A stretch of DNA of 52,618 nt from Acidobacteriota bacterium (GTDB taxonomy: Bacteria; Acidobacteriota; Terriglobia; Acidiferrales; UBA7541). The stretch spans positions 1 through 52,618 of the forward strand of contig JAYVMO010000002.1 of the NCBI GenBank assembly GCA_043758915.1, in the 5' to 3' direction. Positions 28,238-39,186 of this stretch are shown here, one piece after another. The position numbers were made by a program, and so were the translations under genes. Below the pieces are notes generated by a model. The model saw only the letters and a program-made list of their open reading frames with translations, did no database searches and was not told where the DNA came from. How positions within the stretch are numbered: position 1 is the first letter of the stretch; every line of letters starts with the position of its first letter.

Positions 28238-30094
28238 ATGTCTTCCGCCCCGCTAAAGCTTACCGTCCTCGGCTCCGGCACTTCCATGGGTGTTCCCACG
28301 CTGGGCTGCCATTGTCGCGTTTGCACTTCGAACGATCCTCACGACAATCGTCTCCGCCCTTCCCTGCTTCTCTCCCGCAACGGCCAAAACGTGGTCATCG
28401 ACACCACCCCCGATTTCCGCCAGCAAGCCCTGCGCGCCAGGCTCGACCGCCTCGACGCCATTCTGCTCACTCATAGCCACGCTGACCACATCCTCGGTTT
28501 CGACGACATCCGGCCCTTCAATATTCGCCAGCGATCCGCGCTCCCCGTTTACAGTACCGACGAAACGTTCCAAGTGATCCGCCGCGCCTTCGCTTATGTT
28601 TTCGACGAGTCTCCTACTCTTAGCACCGTTCCAAGCGTCACCCTGCATCTCGCCAAAGAGCCGTTCGAATTGCTCGGCGTGCCTTTCATCCCCATACCGC
28701 TAGTCCATGGCCCGATGGAGGTTCTCGGATTCCGCTTCGGCCGCGCCGCTTATCTCACCGACTTTAGCTCCGTCCCCGATGCATCGCTCGCGTTGCTCGG
28801 CGGCCTCGACGACCTCATCCTCGACGCCTTGCGCGACATTCCCCATCCCATGCACCAAACCGTGGAACAGGCCCTCGCCCTGATCGCACAGCTTCGCCCG
28901 CGCCGCGCCTGGTTTACGCACATCGCCCACGATTTGCCTCACGCCGAGACCAATGAACGCCTCCGCAAATTGGGCCTCCCTCACGTCCAGCTCGCCTTCG
29001 ATGGTTTGCAATTCGACGTCCACGTGGATGGAACGACGCTACCTGCCCACCCCACGGCGGCGCAAGATTTGGCCACCCGCGGCGACCCCGTCACCATCCA
29101 CAGTTCATCACCACCCGCGCTCGCAATGTTCACTTCAACTGCGGCATGGAATGTGCACTACTCCGCATCCGCTCGCGGCAGTCTTCTCGCCATCGGCAAT
29201 TTTGACGGCATCCACCTGGGCCACCAATCGATCCTGCGCGCCGTGGTCTCGCGTGCGCAGGCCACCAACGCTGTCGCGACCGCTCTGACGTTCGACCCTT
29301 CGCCCCGCAAGGTCTTGCACCCCGAATCCGCTCCACTGCGCCTCTCCACCAACGCCCAGCGCATGCAATGGTTTCATGCGGGGGGCCTCGAAGCCGCCGT
29401 CGTGATGCCGTTTACCCTCGAGTTGGCGCGCCTCGCTCCGGAAGAATTCGTCGAACAATTCCTGGTACGCGATCTGCACGTTCGTGCCGTTCTCGTCGGT
29501 GAAAACTTCCGCTTCGGCCACCATCAGGCCGGCGATGTGCTTCTCCTGCGAGAGCTTGGCGCCCAGCACAATTTCCAAGTGACGATCATTTCACCAATCG
29601 CCTATCGCGGCGAGGTTGTCTCCAGCACCATCATTCGCCGCGCGGTTGCCGCCGGCGACATCACGCATGCCGCGCGCTTGCTGGGACGCCCGTTTGCTCT
29701 CACCGGAGAAGTCGTCACAGGCACGGGCACGGGCCGCCGCTTCACTTTTCCAACGCTGAATCTGGTTGTGGAGCAGGAACTCTTGCCGGCGCGGGGCGTT
29801 TATATCACGCGCACACTCTTCGATGGCCAGACGCGGAGCCACCGTTCGGTCACCAACATCGGCATGCGCCCCACATTCAACGGCTCCGCCCTCAGCGTGG
29901 AAACCCACCTATTGGATTTTCCAAAAGAACCCGCTCCGAAGCGCATCGAGGTCCGCTTCTGGAAACGCCTGCGCGCGGAAAAAAAGTTCAGCGGCCCCGA
30001 AGATTTACGCGCGCAAATCGCCCGCGACATCGCCATCGCAAACTCATTCTTCTCCCGCCTCCGCCACTTCCGCTCTCTCCGCGAGCCCGCCTAG
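28238..30094 (+). CDS. ribF: Fusion: PhnP-like MBL-fold metallohydrolase plus bifunctional riboflavin kinase/FAD synthetase
   Basis: N-part has LGSGTSMGVP, CHCRVC, THSHADH, YLTD, THIAH. C-part has GNFDGIHLGH, VSSTIIR, FPTLN, NIGMRPTF, ETHLLDF. The frame is uninterrupted over 618 aa. Confidence 0.9.
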   Translation: MSSAPLKLTVLGSGTSMGVPTLGCHCRVCTSNDPHDNRLRPSLLLSRNGQNVVIDTTPDFRQQALRARLDRLDAILLTHSHADHILGFDDIRPFNIRQRSALPVYSTDETFQVIRRAFAYVFDESPTLSTVPSVTLHLAKEPFELLGVPFIPIPLVHGPMEVLGFRFGRAAYLTDFSSVPDASLALLGGLDDLILDALRDIPHPMHQTVEQALALIAQLRPRRAWFTHIAHDLPHAETNERLRKLGLPHVQLAFDGLQFDVHVDGTTLPAHPTAAQDLATRGDPVTIHSSSPPALAMFTSTAAWNVHYSASARGSLLAIGNFDGIHLGHQSILRAVVSRAQATNAVATALTFDPSPRKVLHPESAPLRLSTNAQRMQWFHAGGLEAAVVMPFTLELARLAPEEFVEQFLVRDLHVRAVLVGENFRFGHHQAGDVLLLRELGAQHNFQVTIISPIAYRGEVVSSTIIRRAVAAGDITHAARLLGRPFALTGEVVTGTGTGRRFTFPTLNLVVEQELLPARGVYITRTLFDGQTRSHRSVTNIGMRPTFNGSALSVETHLLDFPKEPAPKRIEVRFWKRLRAEKKFSGPEDLRAQIARDIAIANSFFSRLRHFRSLREPA

Positions 30095-30457: not shown

Positions 30458-30952
30458 CTACTGTTTTATTTTCGGAAGGCATTCCTCGCAATAACCGCCA
30501 ACTTCCGTGCGCGAAACGGTGACCTTCATGCGGAAGTCTCTCGCGATCTGCTCTTTCAATTGCTCGTAAAGTTTGCTTTCGAACTCGCGCACTTTCCCGC
30601 AGCGCAGGCACGCCACGTGGATGTGATCGCGCGGTCCATGGCTTTCGTAGTAGTGCCGGTCGCCGCGCAAGTGCAACAGATCCAGTTCGTCGATCAGCCC
30701 CTGTTTTTTGAGAAGATCGATGGTCCGGTAGACCGTGACCAGGTGCACCGCGGGATCAATCTTCCTCGCCCGCTCCAGGATCTGATCCACGTCCAGGTGC
30801 CGCTCGGCATTGTCCATCACCTGCAGAATCACGCGCCGTTGCCGCGTCAGCCGGATGCCGCGCCCGCCCAGTGCTTGTTGCAGCTTGCCTGTCGTTTCCG
30901 CGGTATTGATGCGCTCACCGGTGGAAACCCGGTGCGTTGGAGATGCAGCCAT
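30458..30952 (-). CDS. Fur-family metalloregulator
   Basis: RLTRQRRVIL, TVYRTIDLL, HIHVACLRCG and C-terminal CEEC. Confidence 0.92.
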   Translation of the reverse strand: MAASPTHRVSTGERINTAETTGKLQQALGGRGIRLTRQRRVILQVMDNAERHLDVDQILERARKIDPAVHLVTVYRTIDLLKKQGLIDELDLLHLRGDRHYYESHGPRDHIHVACLRCGKVREFESKLYEQLKEQIARDFRMKVTVSRTEVGGYCEECLPKIKQ

Positions 30953-30984
30953 TCGTTGTGCCCCGAGGCGCGGCGCCCAGCGCC

Positions 30985-32319
30985 CTAAGAGTGGATCGGC
31001 AGCAGCCGCGCTACATCGTTATACATCACGATCGCAAACAAGACCAAGATGAACACCAGCCCGACCTGCACGAAGCGTTCTTTGAAGCCCATGCTGAAAT
31101 CGCGCCGTCGGATGCCTTCGAGCGTGAGCAGCAAAATGTTTCCGCCATCCAGAATTGGAATCGGCAGGAGATTAAGGATCCCCAGGTTGAGACTGATAAT
31201 GGCCATGAGGTTGATTACCGCGAACGCGCCTTCCTTGACGGCTTGTCCCGCCTGATCGATGATTCCCACAGGTCCTAGCAATAGCTTTACGGACTGCCTG
31301 CCGGTGAAGAGCCTGCCGACCAGCCCCAACAACTGCTTCAAACCAGACCATGTCACCGCCGAGGCATTTTGTGCGGCGGTCTCAAGCGTCATTTTCTTGT
31401 AAGACCAGCGCTCTTCTGGTCCTACCCCAAGCATGAAATTGGCTTTACCATCTTCGCCAACGATCGATTGGGGTTCGAGCTTCAGCGTGACGAGTTCTCC
31501 CTTGCGCTTTACCACCGTCACCAGCGGGTTGCCGTTCGAATTCAAGATCATGTCCTTGAACTCTATCCAGTTTGCAATCGCCGTGCCGTTCACGGAAACG
31601 ATCAAGTCCCCGCTCTTCATTCCTCCCCGCTGGGCACCGAAGCCGCGAATCGGCTGGGTGATGACCGGTTTCACGAAAGCATAGTGTCCGGGAGCGTCCG
31701 CTTGGACAAGTTCCTTGCCGGTGACTTCAACAATTCGCGTTGTTCCCTGATGCTCAACTGCCACGCGATAATGAGTGTCAGGCCGCTCCTCATTGAAATT
31801 CTCGTAAACTTTGTCCCAATTCGGCGTGGCTACCCCGTTGATCTCCGTAATTCTATCTCCGACCGCTACGCCAGCCTCCGCCAGCGGGTCATTCGCTTTC
31901 ATGGTCGTAATGACCGGAGCATCATCCAGGTACGAGGGATACGGCAGGCCCTTGATCCAGAAAAAAGAGCCCAGCAGCAAGATCGGCACGACCAGATTCA
32001 CCGCGGGCCCCGCAAAGGAAATTAACACCCGCTGCCACCGCGGCTTGCTCATCAACTCATCCGGCCCACCTGCCGGCGGCGCTTCGCTGGAATCGATTTC
32101 GGAAAGGTCCTGCCCGGCCATGCGCACGTAGCCACCCAGCGGCAGCGCACTAACGCGATAATCCGTCGCACCGCGTTTCCAGCCAAACAGCCGCGGCCCG
32201 AAACCAATCGAAAAAACGTCCACGCGTACGCCGAACAAACGGGCCATCGCAAAGTGACCCAACTCGTGCACCAGAATCATCAATCCCAACACCAGCACGA
32301 CGCCCAGTATCCAACTCAT
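30985..32319 (-). CDS. rseP: RIP metalloprotease RseP (site-2 protease with two PDZ domains)
   Basis: HELGH, FSIGFG, PLGGYVRM, AGPAVN, NLLPIPILDGG. Confidence 0.96.
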   Translation of the reverse strand: MSWILGVVLVLGLMILVHELGHFAMARLFGVRVDVFSIGFGPRLFGWKRGATDYRVSALPLGGYVRMAGQDLSEIDSSEAPPAGGPDELMSKPRWQRVLISFAGPAVNLVVPILLLGSFFWIKGLPYPSYLDDAPVITTMKANDPLAEAGVAVGDRITEINGVATPNWDKVYENFNEERPDTHYRVAVEHQGTTRIVEVTGKELVQADAPGHYAFVKPVITQPIRGFGAQRGGMKSGDLIVSVNGTAIANWIEFKDMILNSNGNPLVTVVKRKGELVTLKLEPQSIVGEDGKANFMLGVGPEERWSYKKMTLETAAQNASAVTWSGLKQLLGLVGRLFTGRQSVKLLLGPVGIIDQAGQAVKEGAFAVINLMAIISLNLGILNLLPIPILDGGNILLLTLEGIRRRDFSMGFKERFVQVGLVFILVLFAIVMYNDVARLLPIHS

Positions 32320-32374
32320 GAATCGCTTGCTTCCCTTCCCTTGCAGATAATCTCTCGGTCTAGCCTAAATCCTT

Positions 32375-33565
32375 CTACGACACCGTTGCTGTCGCCACCG
32401 ACAATCGACCCACTTCTTCCTTGGCCATTCGACGCGCCTCGGCATCCGCCGCAAGCACATCCTCCATCTTCTCAAATCGCATTCGAGGCGTGCGGCCTAA
32501 TACTCTCTCAATCACTTCCGGGATACCCAGGAACGGCAGCCGTCGCTCCAGAAACGCCGCCACCGCAATCTCATCCGCCGCGTTCAACGCACACGGCAGC
32601 GCCCCGCCCTTCTTCATCGCTTCCCGTGCCAACTTCAAGCAAGGGAACCGCCTTGTCGAAACCTTTTCGAAGTCCAACCTCTTCAGTTTGGACCAATCGA
32701 GCGTCACCTGATTCGATGCCACCCGCTCCGGATAGGTTAACGCATATTGGATGGGCATGCGCATGTCCGTCGGCCCCAGTTGCGCCAAGATGGAACCGTC
32801 CACATACTCCACCATCGAGTGCATCGTTGATTGCGGATGGATGACCACATCGATTTGGTCCGGGCGCATCCCGAAGAGCCAGCGCGCCTCGATCACCTCG
32901 AACCCCTTGTTCATCATCGTCGCGGAATCGATCGTGATGCGGTTTCCCATCCGCCAGTTCGGGTGCGCCAGGGCTTGCTCGATGGTCACATTTTCCAGCG
33001 CCTTCAGCGGTGTCTTTCGAAACGGCCCGCCAGAAGCCGTTAGCACCAGTCGCCGCACTTCCGTGTGCTTTCCGCCTCGCAGGCACTGGTGCACTGCGTT
33101 ATGTTCGCTGTCCACCGGCAACAGTTCCTGCCCCGCGTGTTTCGCCGCGGCCATCACCAGCTCACCCGCCGCGACCAGCACTTCCTTGTTCGAAAGCGCA
33201 ACGCTCTTCCCCAGTTTCAGCGCTTCGTACGTGGCTTCCAGACCCACAACGCCCACCGCTGCCGACACCACAATATCCGCTCTCGCATGCGTCCCAACCG
33301 CCCGCATTCCTTCGCGGCCATGATGAATCGCCGGCATCGGCGCAATGCCTTTGGCTCTCAGTTGCCGCGCCAGTTCATCCGCCTTCTGCGCGTCGCCCAC
33401 CGACACCACTTCCGGCCGGTGCCGCTCGATCTGCCCCGCCAGTTCCTCCAGGTTCGCTCCCGCCGCCAGCGCCACTACGCAAAAGCGTTCTGGCAGGGAC
33501 TCCACCACCGAAAGACATTGCCTTCCGATGGAGCCCGTCGAACCCAATATGGAAAGTTGTTTCAC
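32375..33565 (-). CDS. dxr: 1-deoxy-D-xylulose-5-phosphate reductoisomerase
   Basis: ILGSTGSIG, NKE, PVDSEH, TASGGPF, HPNWRMG..ITIDSATMMNKG. Alternative GTG start at 33577. Confidence 0.97.
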   Translation of the reverse strand: MKQLSILGSTGSIGRQCLSVVESLPERFCVVALAAGANLEELAGQIERHRPEVVSVGDAQKADELARQLRAKGIAPMPAIHHGREGMRAVGTHARADIVVSAAVGVVGLEATYEALKLGKSVALSNKEVLVAAGELVMAAAKHAGQELLPVDSEHNAVHQCLRGGKHTEVRRLVLTASGGPFRKTPLKALENVTIEQALAHPNWRMGNRITIDSATMMNKGFEVIEARWLFGMRPDQIDVVIHPQSTMHSMVEYVDGSILAQLGPTDMRMPIQYALTYPERVASNQVTLDWSKLKRLDFEKVSTRRFPCLKLAREAMKKGGALPCALNAADEIAVAAFLERRLPFLGIPEVIERVLGRTPRMRFEKMEDVLAADAEARRMAKEEVGRLSVATATVS

Positions 33566-33610
33566 GAAGTTCCGCACTTCCCTTTTTGTCGGTTGGAAAC
33601 GCCCGTGGCC

Positions 33611-34486
33611 CTACACTTTGGGCGAATAGATCAACATCCAATAGTACCAGACAACCGGAATCGCCAGAATCAATGCATCAATGCGGTCCAACACTCCGCC
33701 GTGCCCCGGCAGCAGCCCACCCGAATCCTTCACTCCCGCACTCCGTTTGTACGCCGACTCCAGCAGATCCCCGGCTTGCCCCGCAACGTTTCCCAGCGCC
33801 GCCATGGCCAATAAATGCGGCAGCGGCGCACTCAGCCATCGTGTAAACGCAACCGCCACCAGCAGAGACCCAACGAAGCTCCCTACCACCCCTTCCCAGG
33901 TCTTTTTCGGACTGAGGTGCGGTGCCATGGGATGCTTTCCAATCGCCCGGCCCACAAAATACGCCACGGTATCCGCTGCCCAGGTAATCACCAGTGCAAA
34001 CAGCAGTAAACGCGGACCTTCTGTTCCCGCCCCGTGCAACCGGATCGCATAGGTAAGCGGAAATGCCACCAATAGCAGCCCGCTAGCGCTGATTCCCGCC
34101 GCAGGCAACGTTTCGACCAGCGGCCGCTTGGTCCATAGCGTAATCACCGCCACGCCAAGAACAAAAACAATCAGCGCATCCTCAGCGCGGGGGAAAAACC
34201 GCACGAGCAGCCACGCCAGGCGCGGAGGATACGTGATCCCGCCGAATTCGCCCCACTTCACCGCCGTCGTAAGCCATTGCAGGTAAACGATGAATAGCGC
34301 ACATGCCGCCGTCCAGAAGCGGTACGCCCGGTGCCCAATTGCCTCGCCAAGCGAGAAATACTCAAACAGCGCCAGCAGCATCACCAGCGCGACCGCCAGC
34401 GACACCACCGCCGTCGATGCCCATAACACCAGCCCCACGACAAACGGTATCAGCACTGCCGCCGTGGCTACCCGCTTCCAAGTCAT
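33611..34486 (-). CDS. cdsA: Phosphatidate cytidylyltransferase
   Basis: DTVAYFVG, SPKKTWEG, GDLLESAYKR..GVKDSG..LPGHGGVLDRID. Confidence 0.96.
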   Translation of the reverse strand: MTWKRVATAAVLIPFVVGLVLWASTAVVSLAVALVMLLALFEYFSLGEAIGHRAYRFWTAACALFIVYLQWLTTAVKWGEFGGITYPPRLAWLLVRFFPRAEDALIVFVLGVAVITLWTKRPLVETLPAAGISASGLLLVAFPLTYAIRLHGAGTEGPRLLLFALVITWAADTVAYFVGRAIGKHPMAPHLSPKKTWEGVVGSFVGSLLVAVAFTRWLSAPLPHLLAMAALGNVAGQAGDLLESAYKRSAGVKDSGGLLPGHGGVLDRIDALILAIPVVWYYWMLIYSPKV

Positions 34487-34601
34487 AGAACGGAGATCCC
34501 CTAAAGAACTGCTGGCTCCATCTCATCACATCAAAGGAAAGAAATCACGCAGGTGGGTCAAAAAAATCAAAGCATTCGTGAGCCGCGGAAAACCGTAACC
34601 G

Positions 34602-35447
34602 TCATTCACCTGCCACGCGCGCGGAATTCTCCGTCGCAGGCGCTCCTTCGCGGATTCCCCCATAGCGCCGCTCGCGCTTCTGGAATTCCACCAGCGCCTC
34701 CAGCAGCCTGGCTCGATTGAAATCCGGCCACAGCGTCTCGGTCACGAAAATCTCCGCGTACGCGATCTGCCACAGCAGGAAATTGCTTACCCGCATCTCC
34801 CCGCTCGTGCGGATCAGCAGGTCCGGATCCGGCAACCCGCCCGTATACATGTGCCGCGCCAACTGCTCTTCCGTGATCGCCCCGCGCAAACTGTGTCCGT
34901 TGCTTTCCGCCAGCAGCGCGTTCATCGCATCCACGATTTCCGCTCGGCCGCCGTAATTCAACGCCACCGACAGGACCATGCCGCTATTCCCCGCCGTCTT
35001 CTCCGTGGCATCGCGAACATCATTCTGCACACCCGCGGATAGCTCTTCCGTCCGGCCGATAAACCTCATGCGAATATTATTTTTCTGCAACAGCGGCATT
35101 TCCTTGCGCAGATATTCACGCAGAAGCTGCATCAGGAAATCGATCTCCGCCTTTGGCCGCCGCCAATTCTCCACCGAAAAGGCATACAGGGTCAGCGCCT
35201 CGATGTTCAGCCGCGCGCAAGTCTCAATGGTCGTGCGTGCCGCCTTGGTCCCCGAGCTGTGGCCGGCCACGCGCGGCAGGTGTCTCCGCTGCGCCCAGCG
35301 CCCGTTCCCATCCATGATCACCGCAACGTGCCGGGGCAGCCGCTTCAGTTCCAGCTTTTCGAGCAGCCGCGACTCCTCGGCCGTGATCGGACCGAGCGCT
35401 CCCGGAGCTGCTACCGCTATCGTTGTGTGTGCTTTGCTGTTCGCCAC
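34602..35447 (-). CDS. uppS: Undecaprenyl diphosphate synthase (cis-prenyltransferase)
   Basis: HVAVIMDGNGRWA, YAFSVENWRR, NYGGR, DLLIRTSGEMRVSNFLLWQ, RRYGG. GTG start at 35447 preferred. Confidence 0.96.
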   Translation of the reverse strand: MANSKAHTTIAVAAPGALGPITAEESRLLEKLELKRLPRHVAVIMDGNGRWAQRRHLPRVAGHSSGTKAARTTIETCARLNIEALTLYAFSVENWRRPKAEIDFLMQLLREYLRKEMPLLQKNNIRMRFIGRTEELSAGVQNDVRDATEKTAGNSGMVLSVALNYGGRAEIVDAMNALLAESNGHSLRGAITEEQLARHMYTGGLPDPDLLIRTSGEMRVSNFLLWQIAYAEIFVTETLWPDFNRARLLEALVEFQKRERRYGGIREGAPATENSARVAGE

Positions 35448-35531
35448 GGCGTTCCTGCGGCTATGTCCTTTATGCCGCAAAGTTAACACACGCCTCACCC
35501 GCTGCGCAATCCCAGGTTGCCTTGTCGGGTA

Positions 35532-36866
35532 TCAGCCCACCGGCCCAGGCGAACCGCCGGCGCTCGCGGGGAAAATCGAGGTATAGACCAGCACCAGCGT
35601 CAGCACGATCATCGCAATGGCCGTCACCCACGCCACCACGTTAAACGTCAGCGTGTTCACATGCTCGCCCATCAGGTCCCGCCGGTTCACCAGCAGCAAA
35701 ATAAAAATCACCACCACCGGCAGCCAGATGCCGTTCCCCACTTGCGAAAAGATCAGAATCTTCCACAGTGGTGCGTGCGGGATCAGAATGATTCCTGCCC
35801 CCGCGGCGATCAAAATCGTATACAGCCCGTAAAAAATCCTCGCTTCGCTGAACTTGTGATCGATCCCCGCCTCGAACCCCAACCCCTCGCAGATCACGTG
35901 CGCCGTCGATAGTGGCAGGATCGTCGCCGCAAACAGCGAGGCATTCAGCAGCCCGAAGGCAAACGTAAACCCAGCCCACTTCCCCGCCAGCGGAATCAGC
36001 GCTTTGGCCGCGTCCGCCGCGTCCGTGATGTTTCGCTGCCCCGAGACGTACAGCGTCGCCGCCGTGCACACGATGATGAAGAACACGATCACCATGCAAC
36101 TGATGCTTCCCACCAGCACGTCCGCGCGCGCCTGCGGGTAGTTCCTCGGCCCCACTTTCTTCTCCACGAATCCCGCCTGTAGATAGAAAAATTGCCACGG
36201 CGCGATGGTCGTCCCCACCAGCGCCGTCAACGTCAGCAAGTATCCCGCTTCAAAATGAAGATTTGGAACCACCACGTGCTGCGCGGCCTGCAGCCAATCC
36301 GGCTTCGCCAGCACCGCGGAAATGATGTATGTCACGTAGAACCCGCAAGCGACGAGAAAAATCACTTCCACCTGCCGGTACGTACCTCGCATCACCAGCA
36401 CCCACACCAGAATCGCCGCAAGGGGCACGGCGATGTATTTGCTCACGTGAAAAATCTCCATCGCCGCCGCCACGCCCGCAAATTCCGCCACCACGTTCGC
36501 CAGATCCACGAAAAAGCCCACCACCATCACGAAAAACGTGGACCGAAACCCGAACTCTTCCCGAATTAAGTCCGATAGCCCTTTTCCCGTAATCACTCCC
36601 ATGCGCGCGCACATCTCCTCCGTCACGTACAACGCGATGGTCATCGGAATCAGCGACCACAGCAGCGCATAGCCGTAGTGCGCCCCTGCTTGCGTGTACG
36701 TCGAGATGCCGCCCGCGTCATTGTCCACGTTGGAAGTAATCAGCCCCGGCCCCACCACCGCCAGCAGCAGCGTCAGACGCCGCCGCAAACCGCGAATGCG
36801 CTGCTGCAACGTCGCGCCGCGCGTCCGCAGTCCCTCCAGGCCGTTCGTGATGGTTTCCCAATTCAT
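35532..36866 (-). CDS. Nramp-family divalent cation transporter, NRMT (Mg2+-permeable)-like
   Basis: TM1 GPGLITSNVDNDAGG (not DPGN), EEMCARMG..TGKGL, TM6 GTTIAPW (lacks the MPH methionine), about 11 TMs. Confidence 0.85.
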   Translation of the reverse strand: MNWETITNGLEGLRTRGATLQQRIRGLRRRLTLLLAVVGPGLITSNVDNDAGGISTYTQAGAHYGYALLWSLIPMTIALYVTEEMCARMGVITGKGLSDLIREEFGFRSTFFVMVVGFFVDLANVVAEFAGVAAAMEIFHVSKYIAVPLAAILVWVLVMRGTYRQVEVIFLVACGFYVTYIISAVLAKPDWLQAAQHVVVPNLHFEAGYLLTLTALVGTTIAPWQFFYLQAGFVEKKVGPRNYPQARADVLVGSISCMVIVFFIIVCTAATLYVSGQRNITDAADAAKALIPLAGKWAGFTFAFGLLNASLFAATILPLSTAHVICEGLGFEAGIDHKFSEARIFYGLYTILIAAGAGIILIPHAPLWKILIFSQVGNGIWLPVVVIFILLLVNRRDLMGEHVNTLTFNVVAWVTAIAMIVLTLVLVYTSIFPASAGGSPGPVG

Positions 36867-36887: not shown

Positions 36888-38129
36888 CTACTTCTTCATC
36901 AGCTTTGAAACCACGTCATCCACCGTAATCGTCCCGAGCGGCCGCTTCTCTTCATCCACCACCGTCAGCATTCGCAGGTTGTACTTGTCGAAGAGTTCGA
37001 ATACTTCGTCATCCTCTGCGGTGGGCTCCACGCTCAGCAGCGGCTCCGTCTTCAACTCCGACATCTTTTGCTCCGGAGCCGCCAGCAGCAGCCGCGCCAC
37101 TGCCACCGTCCCGGAATACTGCGCCGCACTGTCCAGCAACACGATGGTGTCCAGTTGGTCCAGGTTCAGGTCTTGCCCCCGCATCCACGCCAGCACCTCA
37201 TCCCGCTCCGAAGTTTCTCCCACAAATGCAAATTCCGGATTCATCATCCCGCCAGCCGTCGCCGGGTCGAATGCCAGCAACTCGCGCACTTCGTTGGCTT
37301 CATATCCGGGCATCTCTTCCAGTAATTCATCCGAAGTTTCCTTCGGCAGGTCGCCCAACAAATCCGCCGCCGCGTCTGGTGCCATCTCTTCCAGAATGTC
37401 CGCCGCCTTCTCCGGGTCCATTTTTTCCACGATCTGGGTCGTCAGCCGCTCATCCAGCTCCGCCAGAACCGCCGCCGCCGTCTCTTCATCCAGCGAAGCG
37501 ATAATCCCCTGCCTCTCGGCCGCGGAGAGGTCTTCCATAATCTCCGCCAGATCCGCGGGGTGCAGGTCCTCGAGTTTTTCGTGCGTGATGCGCAGCTTCA
37601 CGCGCCGCAGCGGGTCCGGCTCGATCAAGTTCACGAACTCCCACCGAATGGTCTTCGGCGGCAACTTGCTCTGCAACTTGCGAATCACGCTCGGAGCCAG
37701 CGCGCCCTGCAACAACCGGCGCACCGCTCCCGGCAAGCCCACGTCGACCTGTGTCAGCCGCAATTCCACATTGCCGTTGGTGCGCAGTTCCGTGAGGTCC
37801 ACGTCATTCACCCTCACCACCTTCCGCCCGCGCGTATCAATAATTTGCTGGTCCAGCAAATCCTTTTTCACTGCCAGCCACCCCTCGTTCGGCTGGTACA
37901 GCTCCAGCGCTCGTTCGTTGACGTTTAACCGCAGTTTTCCCGGCTCCACGGACGCCACCTGATCGTGCTTGGCCACCAGCGGCTGAAAATGTCCGCGCGA
38001 AATCAGGAAATGCGAGATGCGATTCGGGGCTTCCGCCGGTTCGATAAAAAACTCGCGCACCTTGCCAACAAAATTTCCCTGCGGGTCGTATGCTTTCGCG
38101 CCCATCAATTCCGTCGCGTAGAGTTCCAT
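36888..38129 (-). CDS. Soluble MgtE-like regulatory protein (PRC-barrel-like N-part, MgtE_N, CBS pair; no membrane domain)
   Basis: DLLDQQIID.RGRKVVRVNDV, LHPADLAEIMEDL, MAPDAAADLL, TAGGMM, G.ITVDDV, then a stop a few residues later with no TM segments. ATG 38129 has a GGGGG/GGAAGG RBS. Confidence 0.85.
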   Translation of the reverse strand: MELYATELMGAKAYDPQGNFVGKVREFFIEPAEAPNRISHFLISRGHFQPLVAKHDQVASVEPGKLRLNVNERALELYQPNEGWLAVKKDLLDQQIIDTRGRKVVRVNDVDLTELRTNGNVELRLTQVDVGLPGAVRRLLQGALAPSVIRKLQSKLPPKTIRWEFVNLIEPDPLRRVKLRITHEKLEDLHPADLAEIMEDLSAAERQGIIASLDEETAAAVLAELDERLTTQIVEKMDPEKAADILEEMAPDAAADLLGDLPKETSDELLEEMPGYEANEVRELLAFDPATAGGMMNPEFAFVGETSERDEVLAWMRGQDLNLDQLDTIVLLDSAAQYSGTVAVARLLLAAPEQKMSELKTEPLLSVEPTAEDDEVFELFDKYNLRMLTVVDEEKRPLGTITVDDVVSKLMKK

Positions 38130-38200
38130 GAACACCCCCTTCCCATCCTTGCAAGATGGTCTTTCTTGCCGTCGTCCCTTGCTACAGGGTCTCAGCCAAC

Positions 38201-38236
38201 AAAAAAACCCGCGCGCCGAACAACCTCGGCCGCGGG
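38201..38236 (-). terminator. Intrinsic terminator inside the leader of the MgtE_N/Nramp operon
   Basis: Minus strand reads CCCGCG-GCCGAG-gttg-TTCGGC-g-CGCGGG-TTTTTTT, about 70 nt upstream of the MgtE_N start. Confidence 0.8.
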
Positions 38237-38264
38237 CAAGTACCTCATACAAATGGACTTACCG

Positions 38265-38414
38265 CTAGCCAGGCGTGCCTCCTCCCCACCCGACTGCCTG
38301 CGCCAATCCCTGCGCCTCGCGAGGCTTCGCGCACACCTGTCGTCGAGCCGCTGGCCTCGGCACGTGCCCTGAAAACAAGCCTCTAGGGCCAGGTTCGAGT
38401 TCGCTGCTTGTCAT
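38265..38414 (-). CDS. Putative Pro-rich leader peptide (49 aa) of a transcription attenuator
   Basis: MTSSELEPGPRGLFSGHVPRPAARRQVCAKPREAQGLAQAVGWGGGTPG* with 6 Pro and AGA/AGG/CGA codons. Its TAG abuts the antiterminator arm. Confidence 0.5.
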   Translation of the reverse strand: MTSSELEPGPRGLFSGHVPRPAARRQVCAKPREAQGLAQAVGWGGGTPG

Positions 38415-38421
38415 CGAGAGA

Positions 38422-38445
38422 AATTTCACTCCCAATTTCACTCCC
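38422..38445. repeat. Perfect 12-bp tandem repeat (AATTTCACTCCC x2)
   Basis: Directly visible. Reads GGGAGTGAAATT x2 on the minus strand. Confidence 0.9.
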
Positions 38446-38451
38446 ACCGTA

Positions 38452-38480
38452 GTGATAAGCCGGGTGCGTCGCATTGTCAA
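38452..38480 (-). promoter_or_regulatory. Sigma70 promoter TTGACA-N17-TATCAC for the leader/MgtE_N/Nramp transcript
   Basis: Perfect -35 at 38475-38480, 17-nt spacer, 4/6 -10, and an AT-rich upstream region. Confidence 0.6.
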
Positions 38481-38526
38481 GAAAAGAATGGCTTTCTCAC
38501 GAAAATAATTTGCTGTTCCCCTCTCG

Positions 38527-39186
38527 CTACCGCTTCTTGGCTTCCTCGAACACCATATCGCGCGGTTCGACGCCCTTCCGCCGGCATTCCTCCACATACA
38601 GCGCCAAATAGTTTTTCAAAATGTAGTCCCGCTTCGAAAACCCCAGCTCTTCGGCAGCCCGGTCAATCGCCTCGGGCGGACCTTCCAGTTCCACAAACGT
38701 TCCGATCGGCGTTTCATCCACTTCGATCAAAAGGCCCTTCCCCCATCGCTGCGCGGCAGGCAATCGGTACGTGGTCCGGTACTTTTCATAGTGAAACCAC
38801 CCCTTCATCCCCAAACCCTCGAAAATCTTCGTCAAATTCTCCGCCTCCGCCACTTCCACTTCGAGCTCTTCCCTCACCTTGTATCGCTCCGCCGGCGCGC
38901 CCACCGCCATCGCCTCGGCCCGCTGTTCCACCGGACGCTTAAACGTCACCACAACCCGTGTCTTAGCCGCTGCCCGCTGCTTCGAACCCCTCTCCGGCGT
39001 CTCCGTCCGAATGCGCAGCAATTGCCCGTGCTTGGCAAGCCCGCCCTGTGGCGTATCAAAAATTACATTCCACTCATGCACACGCCCGCCGCCCCCAGCG
39101 CACGCCCGCGCTCCCCAGCGCTTCAGCGCACGCCGAAACGCCTTCAAATCACCGATTCTCAGCTTGATTTCCGTCTCTTGTGCCAT
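38527..39186 (-). CDS. CYTH-domain protein (class IV adenylate cyclase/triphosphatase-like)
   Basis: ETEIK (ExExK), LLRIR, TFKRP, REELE, YEKYR, DETPIGTFVELEG. Confidence 0.88.
   Translation of the reverse strand: MAQETEIKLRIGDLKAFRRALKRWGARACAGGGGRVHEWNVIFDTPQGGLAKHGQLLRIRTETPERGSKQRAAAKTRVVVTFKRPVEQRAEAMAVGAPAERYKVREELEVEVAEAENLTKIFEGLGMKGWFHYEKYRTTYRLPAAQRWGKGLLIEVDETPIGTFVELEGPPEAIDRAAEELGFSKRDYILKNYLALYVEECRRKGVEPRDMVFEEAKKR

Follow-up and report, generated by a model that had tools for sequence, protein, structure and literature searches.

A conserved leader peptide upstream of an MgtE_N/NRMT operon in Acidobacteriota: a probable transcription attenuator with a candidate ribosome-based magnesium sensor

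We found a conserved leader upstream of a two-gene MgtE_N/NRMT operon in an acidobacterial genome, and it is very probably an attenuator under translational control. The more specific reading, to which we give a probability of roughly 0.6, is a leader peptide transcription attenuator in which low Mg2+ is sensed via aborted translation at the acidic/proline start of the peptide. On this reading magnesium is probably sensed by the ribosome itself, a task that falls to a magnesium riboswitch in related bacteria. We observe the anatomy of the leader, its conservation, the coding signature of its upstream open reading frame (uORF) and compensatory base pairs; the switch is predicted by folding. The window is the whole stretch of DNA that was analyzed, 52,618 nucleotides of contig JAYVMO010000002.1. 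The leader and the operon lie on its minus strand, with the following features.

38452..38480, minus strand: candidate sigma70-type promoter, TTGACA-17-TATCAC (-35 TTGACA at 38480-38475, 17 nt, -10 TATCAC at 38457-38452), identified from sequence and found at the same place in relatives
38429..38432, minus strand: Shine-Dalgarno (SD)-like GGAG of the uORF, 14 nt 5′ of the ATG
38265..38414, minus strand: uORF (leader peptide) of 49 codons plus TAG, with 6 Pro; frame and stop position conserved
38385..38402, minus strand: acidic/Pro motif ELEPGP, codons 5-10, the predicted ribosome-destabilizing sensor (from dN/dS and the intrinsic ribosome destabilization, or IRD, rule)
38278..38287, minus strand: internal SD-like purine run about 18 nt 5′ of the stop, kept in relatives
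38220..38280, minus strand: antiterminator, in which the last codons, the stop and the next bases pair with bases before and in the 5′ arm of the terminator
38201..38237, minus strand: intrinsic terminator hairpin and T7 run (folding, RNAalifold)
36888..38129, minus strand: PRC-barrel/MgtE_N/CBS protein without the MgtE membrane domain, 413 aa (PF05239, PF03448, PF00571)
35532..36866, minus strand: Nramp-related transporter of the predicted NRMT (NrmT) type, 444 aa (PF01566)

A first-pass annotation, made from the letters of the window, had described the promoter-like site, a 49-codon uORF with six prolines and a strong intrinsic terminator ending at 38201, and all three are present. The -35 box is conserved among relatives and reads TTGACA in 82, TTGACT in 17 and TTGACC in one of 100 leaders, a match to TTGAC having been required by the script. 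A weak -10 box occurs at the same place in the relatives' leaders; because the -10 lacks a T at position 6, the promoter-like site is absent from the list produced by the consensus scan. A 12-nt tandem duplication (38445-38422) has the SD of the uORF in its second copy. Among 47 representative leaders, 31 have this SD 13-14 nt from the ATG, whereas at the downstream gene the spacer is 5-7 nt in 29; the uORF distance is kept where the relatives' 5′ UTR is longer. The longer 5′ UTRs have 25-100 nt of extra sequence inserted between promoter and SD; the insertion in leader L101 is a tandem repeat. The terminator stem (about 38237-38208) has a folding energy of -24.4 kcal/mol and is followed by the T7 run that reaches 38201. 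It was revealed by folding, having been missed by the automated terminator scan, and no second copy of its pattern was found in the window's own genome. The first gene of the operon starts downstream of it, at 38129.

A gene with a CYTH domain lies upstream of the leader (38527-39186, minus strand) and is the same neighbor in 116 of 121 loci. Since no terminator is seen in the 47 nt before the promoter, read-through from the CYTH gene into the leader is possible. At three loci from other families (L162, L170 and L177) the CYTH gene directly adjoins the MgtE_N gene and the leader is absent.

The first gene of the operon was found in 145 of 150 genomes of the window's family. The leader DNA is matched in 44 of 60 genomes of the Ca. 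Acidiferrum genus and in none of 40 that belong to other families. We collected 146 distinct upstream regions and retained 135 with a promoter and terminator call; 124 of these have an acid-Pro start, which was picked blind to where the frame stops. In 119 of the 124 the stop falls 15-35 nt short of the terminator, with all three stop codons in use (TAA 66, TAG 37, TGA 16) and with uORF lengths of 20-78 codons (50 codons in 58/119). The five exceptions comprise three mis-anchored leaders, one with a wrong ATG and one, L012, that is frameshifted and whose stop is still 8 nt before the terminator. Twelve leaders (L038, L049, L054, L073, L142, L150-L154, L156 and L159) have lost the usual stop, and their frame ends two codons on, still inside the 5′ strand of the antiterminator.

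A census blind to the peptide gave the same picture. An ATG frame of at least 40 codons that ends 5-36 nt before the terminator occurs in 94 of 135 leaders and in 4.7% of 2700 dinucleotide shuffles. The misses are mostly terminator calls mis-anchored inside the uORF. The automated censuses drop leaders by pattern misses (11/146 without a terminator call and 11 without a start; 27/162 and 35/135 in the peptide-blind census), and the folding and substitution analyses used 121 leaders, with the three mis-anchored ones re-anchored and L020 left out. Read in the two alternative frames, the variable middle of 120 leaders has 125 and 69 stop triplets; when the same control is run over the whole uORF, 5 and 10 of 119 are open, a result skewed by stops that are conserved in the start block. 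Over 23 pairs, dN/dS is 0.26 for codons 2-11, 0.91 for codons 12-41 and 0.57 for codons 42-50. The middle of the uORF thus evolves near neutrally, and it is freely variable in length and composition. In its conserved short ORF the leader agrees with a ribosome-dependent attenuator. Lack of conservation of the uORF and the antiterminator had been named in advance as grounds for abandoning the idea; both are conserved, as judged by stop position, N-terminal coding substitutions and compensatory pairs.

Some leaders of the family lack the acid-Pro motif. Another leader, L046 (genome G127), is far shorter and has no ATG; a 15-codon TTG frame that reads ...PDPKPDP... ends just upstream of the terminator, and this leader is nearer to MgtL in look.

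The annotation had placed the antiterminator in a hairpin that begins at the G of the TAG stop (38265-38232). That hairpin does fold (-11.1 kcal/mol), and it is the inner half of a longer structure at 38280-38220 with an energy of -24.8 kcal/mol, vs. -24.4 for the terminator. For the stop region of the 47 representatives, pairing with the terminator arm of the same leader gives -18.9, vs. -16.3 ± 0.4 with permuted arms (0/20000). The stop region is also the best partner of the arm among all 26-nt windows tried along the uORF; in only 4/47 leaders does no other arm pair better than the leader's own. In alignment A1, 74% of the cells of the antiterminator structure are paired, vs. 68% when shuffled and at most 47% when slid. 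There are 42 double changes vs. 19, among them nine from G-C to A-U and four from C-G to G-C, and these may represent few independent events among kin. The consensus pairs of the terminator carry double changes as well (RNAalifold). From covariation and folding, the antiterminator and the intrinsic terminator are predicted to be mutually exclusive, as the annotation had it, and to overlap the path of the ribosome.

Folding also predicts how a ribosome would act on the switch. With the 3′ arm of the terminator absent, the core of the 5′ arm pairs with the stop region with probability 0.56 if there is no ribosome, 0.44 if one is present early in the uORF and 0.18 if one has reached the stop; the window's own values are 0.95, 0.93 and 0.00, and its antiterminator is also lost with the ribosome edge at stop-40 (0.01). 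At equilibrium the mean probability of the terminator is 0.77 for free RNA, 0.65 for an early stall (0.96 in the window) and 0.97 for a ribosome at the stop. Because the terminator mostly wins at equilibrium even without a ribosome at the stop, the switch must be kinetic, i.e., co-transcriptional.

We propose that the uORF would be translated in vivo as follows. When Mg2+ is sufficient, a ribosome coupled to the polymerase would get past ELEPGP, cross about 40 neutral spacer codons and arrive at the stop, where it would cover the 5′ strand of the antiterminator; the terminator would form and the operon would be off. Low Mg2+ would instead make the ribosome come apart at codons 5-11 by IRD, as shown for MgtL. 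The freed stop region could then pair with the 5′ arm of the terminator before the 3′ arm exists, which would allow transcription of the transporter. A second ribosome may be kept from catching up by the long spacer and by the wide spacing of the SD. The annotation had a ribosome at the stop causing termination, which fits the folding; it had a stalled ribosome giving read-through, and here abortion by IRD fits better than stalling.

The target is likely a magnesium-uptake operon. The 413-aa protein falls below the cut-off of TIGR00400. The 444-aa transporter has its best PDB match in EleNRMT (7QIA, E 7.5e-99; the best MntH match is 1.4e-29) and carries the EleNRMT site residues, Asp and Gly in helix 1 and Thr, Ala and Trp in helix 6. 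These residues and the MgtE-fragment neighbor point to a transporter of the NRMT/NrmT type. Other Mg2+ importers are scarce in the family: CorA passes the cut-off in 6/61 genomes, MgtE in 3/61 and MgtA in 22/61, and 33/61 have none of the three. The element is wholly absent at three loci (L141, L240 and L230), and the few, related genomes that these come from all carry CorA. Two leaders lack the motif (L231 in genome G116 and L157 in G128) although their genomes have no other known Mg2+ importer. Following the operon on the same strand (30458-35498) are what we take to be cdsA-, dxr- and rseP-like genes and a Fur-family regulator, along with uppS (by Pfam) 3′ of the operon. Farther on, on the plus strand (28238-30094), is a 618-aa frame that is presumably a fusion of a metallo-beta-lactamase-fold hydrolase and a riboflavin kinase/FAD synthetase.

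The same attenuator could respond to Mn2+, or to general ribosome stability (pH, osmolarity, antibiotics), and not to Mg2+ specifically. We consider this unlikely, with several observations in its favor. EleNRMT transports both Mg2+ and Mn2+, according to the accessible part of PMC8806188. Gene pairs of an MgtE fragment and nrmT are known from Shin et al. (2014; PMC4072509), and in the part of that paper available the NrmT of A. capsulatum, a homolog from another family than that of the window, rescued Mn2+ uptake fully and Mg2+ uptake only at low mM. The window's transporter is the only Nramp-family gene found in its own genome, which is 75% complete; corA regulation responds to Mn2+ (PMC11552253, as far as its accessible text goes); and a simple scan found a similar leader before 0/20 mgtA-like genes of the family. 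Against this stand the NRMT site of the transporter, the absence of other Mg2+ importers from about half of the family's genomes, and the M-boxes that hold the same position in another family of the class (f7, see below). The link to Mg2+ gains indirect support from these M-boxes.

The conserved part of the peptide is its start only, E-x-E-P-x-P after small residues, within codons 2-11. Starts were chosen by the SD, since those picked by acid-Pro (36/47 of which satisfy the IRD rule) are circular. In the 46 leaders with SD-chosen starts, position 8 is E in 32, and acid-Pro occurs within the first 12 residues in 42, vs. 18 of 1426 windows further in. An IRD-prone segment has four D/E/P within six residues; its effect is greatest close to the N-terminus and is opposed by bulky residues ahead of it, and MgtL employs such a segment, EPDP, as a Mg2+ sensor (10.1101/2021.02.02.429294, accessible part). 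The four-of-six rule holds for 32 of the 46 leaders, the window's own included, and fails for 14; it holds for 8/362 N-termini of the own genome and for 0/129 windows further into the leader peptides. Residues 2-5 are small, with a mean volume of 88.8 vs. 104.7 for the genome, figures that use a residue volume table and kin that are not independent. Judged by sequence, then, the leader qualifies as a candidate IRD sensor, with at least four of six D/E/P at the N-terminus and few and small residues before them. Of the acidic, PxP and Arg clusters that the annotation had singled out, the N-terminal acid/Pro motif is conserved; the PRP, the six prolines and the Arg codons are not common to the relatives' peptides. 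A point against the IRD model is that the motif follows 4-5 small residues, whereas that of MgtL comes directly after Met.

Proline is the most conserved residue of the start (38/46 at position 9, 30/46 at position 11), and the ribosome might instead stall at E-P-x-P when EF-P, Pro-tRNA or ABCF is limiting. The attenuator would be the same, its input would be proline or elongation stress, and Mg2+ would act indirectly. By folding, a stall at E-P-x-P likewise leaves the antiterminator free, and Pro-codon control of mgtL and mgtP has already been published. We nonetheless regard this as rather improbable: PP occurs in only 11 of 121 peptides, and the conserved acidic residues and small preceding residues are not explained by proline supply.

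The annotation had also allowed for a new metal-sensing riboswitch formed by extra stems inside the uORF. Such G+C-rich stems can be drawn, and they are not conserved in relatives. The body of the uORF folds no better than its shuffles (z +0.87 in the window; mean -0.24 over 47 leaders, with 5/47 below -2), and the terminator is the sole consensus helix of the leader's 3′ part. We tried two candidate pairings and rejected both. One joins a GAACC block at the N-terminal end to the C-terminal block; it recurs in 15 of 58 folds of 50-codon uORFs, and the own blocks pair at -11.9, vs. -12.9 for permuted ones. The other, an internal GGAGG as a second antiterminator, is without covariation with the terminator-side tract (own -9.5, permuted -9.8). 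GGAG or GAGG is nonetheless found at -26..-9 of the stop in 43/47 leaders vs. 33/205 middle windows, and this purine run could serve ribosome retention at the stop, or it could be a relic of the 3′ strand of an M-box. Rfam has zero matches in the whole window at the gathering score and none for 38050-38600 at E ≤ 10, and the M-box (RF00380) is found in 0/61 genomes of the window's family by the same model that detects M-boxes in family f7, which bears out the annotation's view that the leader has no M-box consensus.

A metal-binding riboswitch or an independent small RNA with an incidental frame is therefore very improbable, and the riboswitch alternative is largely refuted. The recurring helix in 15/58 and the GGA codon 6 before the stop, fixed at the nucleotide level in 84/85, speak in its favor. 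But the unstructured body and the start and end blocks without covariation argue against a new aptamer, conservation does not extend to the inner stems, the PRP or the Arg codons, the leaders show no covarying aptamer fold upstream of the expression platform, and the frame, the synonymous changes and the stop-codon swaps require translation. It is just as hard to credit that the peptide is a functional small protein, e.g., a transporter regulator, with a terminator that just sets a fixed ratio: the lengths do cluster at 50 codons, but the middle is near neutral and free in length and composition, and the constraint on the C-terminal Gly acts on the RNA, since its codon covaries with the terminator arm (GGC/GCC vs. 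GAC/GTC).

The leader invites comparison with MgtL/mgtA of E. coli and Salmonella, CorL/corA and MgtQ/mgtB, in which a uORF likewise precedes a Mg2+ importer. In all three, efficient translation switches the gene off (10.1101/2021.02.02.429294, PMC11552253 and PMC8092293, from their accessible parts). The motifs, EPDP in MgtL and ELEPGP here, are both N-terminal and acidic/Pro. The MgtL group differs in its output, which is Rho loading or RBS occlusion; mgtA and corA act via Rho (PMC11552253) and mgtQ via RBS occlusion (PMC8092293), again as given in the accessible text. The leader described here has an intrinsic terminator and antiterminator, with the stop inside the antiterminator, and, judged from the conserved intrinsic terminator, its output would not be Rho-dependent. 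It also differs from MgtL in its uORF of about 50 codons with a neutral spacer, and from the MgtL group in its target, an NRMT operon. No homology to MgtL or to the mgtA leader RNA was found, either by Rfam or with 20 leader peptides, none of which matched NCBIfam, or Pfam over cut-off. The leader may thus work like MgtL without being homologous to it.

Classical trpL-type amino-acid attenuators consist of a leader peptide, an antiterminator and an intrinsic terminator, and full translation favors termination. Such attenuators, also mentioned in PMC8092293, resemble the present leader in these three parts and in that complete translation would lead to termination. They differ in that here there is no codon run for one amino acid, the target is a metal transporter, and a ribosome at the stop would itself cover the antiterminator; we saw no conserved counterpart of the upstream 1:2 hairpin.

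The closest counterpart by target is the M-box (ykoK, RF00380) on MgtE-fragment/nrmT operons, which has the same two-gene operon and control by an intrinsic terminator (PMC4072509, accessible part). Its aptamer is absent here, and the predicted sensor is the translating ribosome. Within the class, the M-box occurs in 18/151 genomes, 14 of them among the 20 genomes of family f7. At the 20 M-box loci (L202-L221, mainly f7), the gene immediately downstream is the homologous MgtE_N gene in 12 and an Nramp-like gene in 5, and in f7 the M-box precedes a terminator with a similar CCCGYG 5′ arm.

A third arrangement is found in family f9, where 10 of 14 genomes have the MgtE_N gene (leaders L242-L251), followed by the Nramp gene in 9 of 10 loci. 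All ten leaders have a -10 box, a GG(A/G)GGC SD and an AUG with an immediate stop (TAG 8, TAA 1, TGA 1), then a spacer of 61-180 nt and a terminator that starts GCCTCC; the start-stop element is about 100-330 nt upstream of the MgtE_N gene. The GCCTCC with which the terminator opens is complementary to the SD, so the element looks like a start-stop attenuator, and we infer that a ribosome sitting on the start-stop would hide the antiterminator. In one of these leaders (L243, genome G082) the -35 is missing and an unrelated sequence that resembles the end of an insertion element precedes the -10, with the SD, the AUG-stop and the terminator intact. It is quite possible, and we put it forward tentatively, that one class carries three interchangeable Mg2+ sensors on the same MgtE_N/NRMT operon with a similar terminator: the M-box aptamer in f7, the ribosome-destabilizing leader peptide in the window's family and the SD-AUG-stop in f9, where the SD would itself serve as the antiterminator strand. 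A ribosome sensor would then have replaced the riboswitch twice, once without a peptide.

In the main text of papers mostly outside subscription journals we found no description of the element. The accessible parts of PMC4833913 and PMC2965389 mention Acidobacteria only in general, and the supplements of these papers and of PMC4072509 (Fig. S5) may list acidobacterial leaders. Shin et al. (2014; PMC4072509, accessible part) asked which ion, Mg2+ or Mn2+, is served by NrmT operons that lack an M-box, and the leader bears on that question. As a test system the leader is simple and portable, with one start codon, six codons and one hairpin, and the start-stop leader of f9 offers a route to ask if initiation or recycling alone reports Mg2+. 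Within the literature examined, Mg2+ sensing by ribosome destabilization has been tested only in enterobacteria. If our reading is true, a non-homologous acidobacterial version that acts on a plain intrinsic terminator would make it a general, convergent way to read Mg2+.
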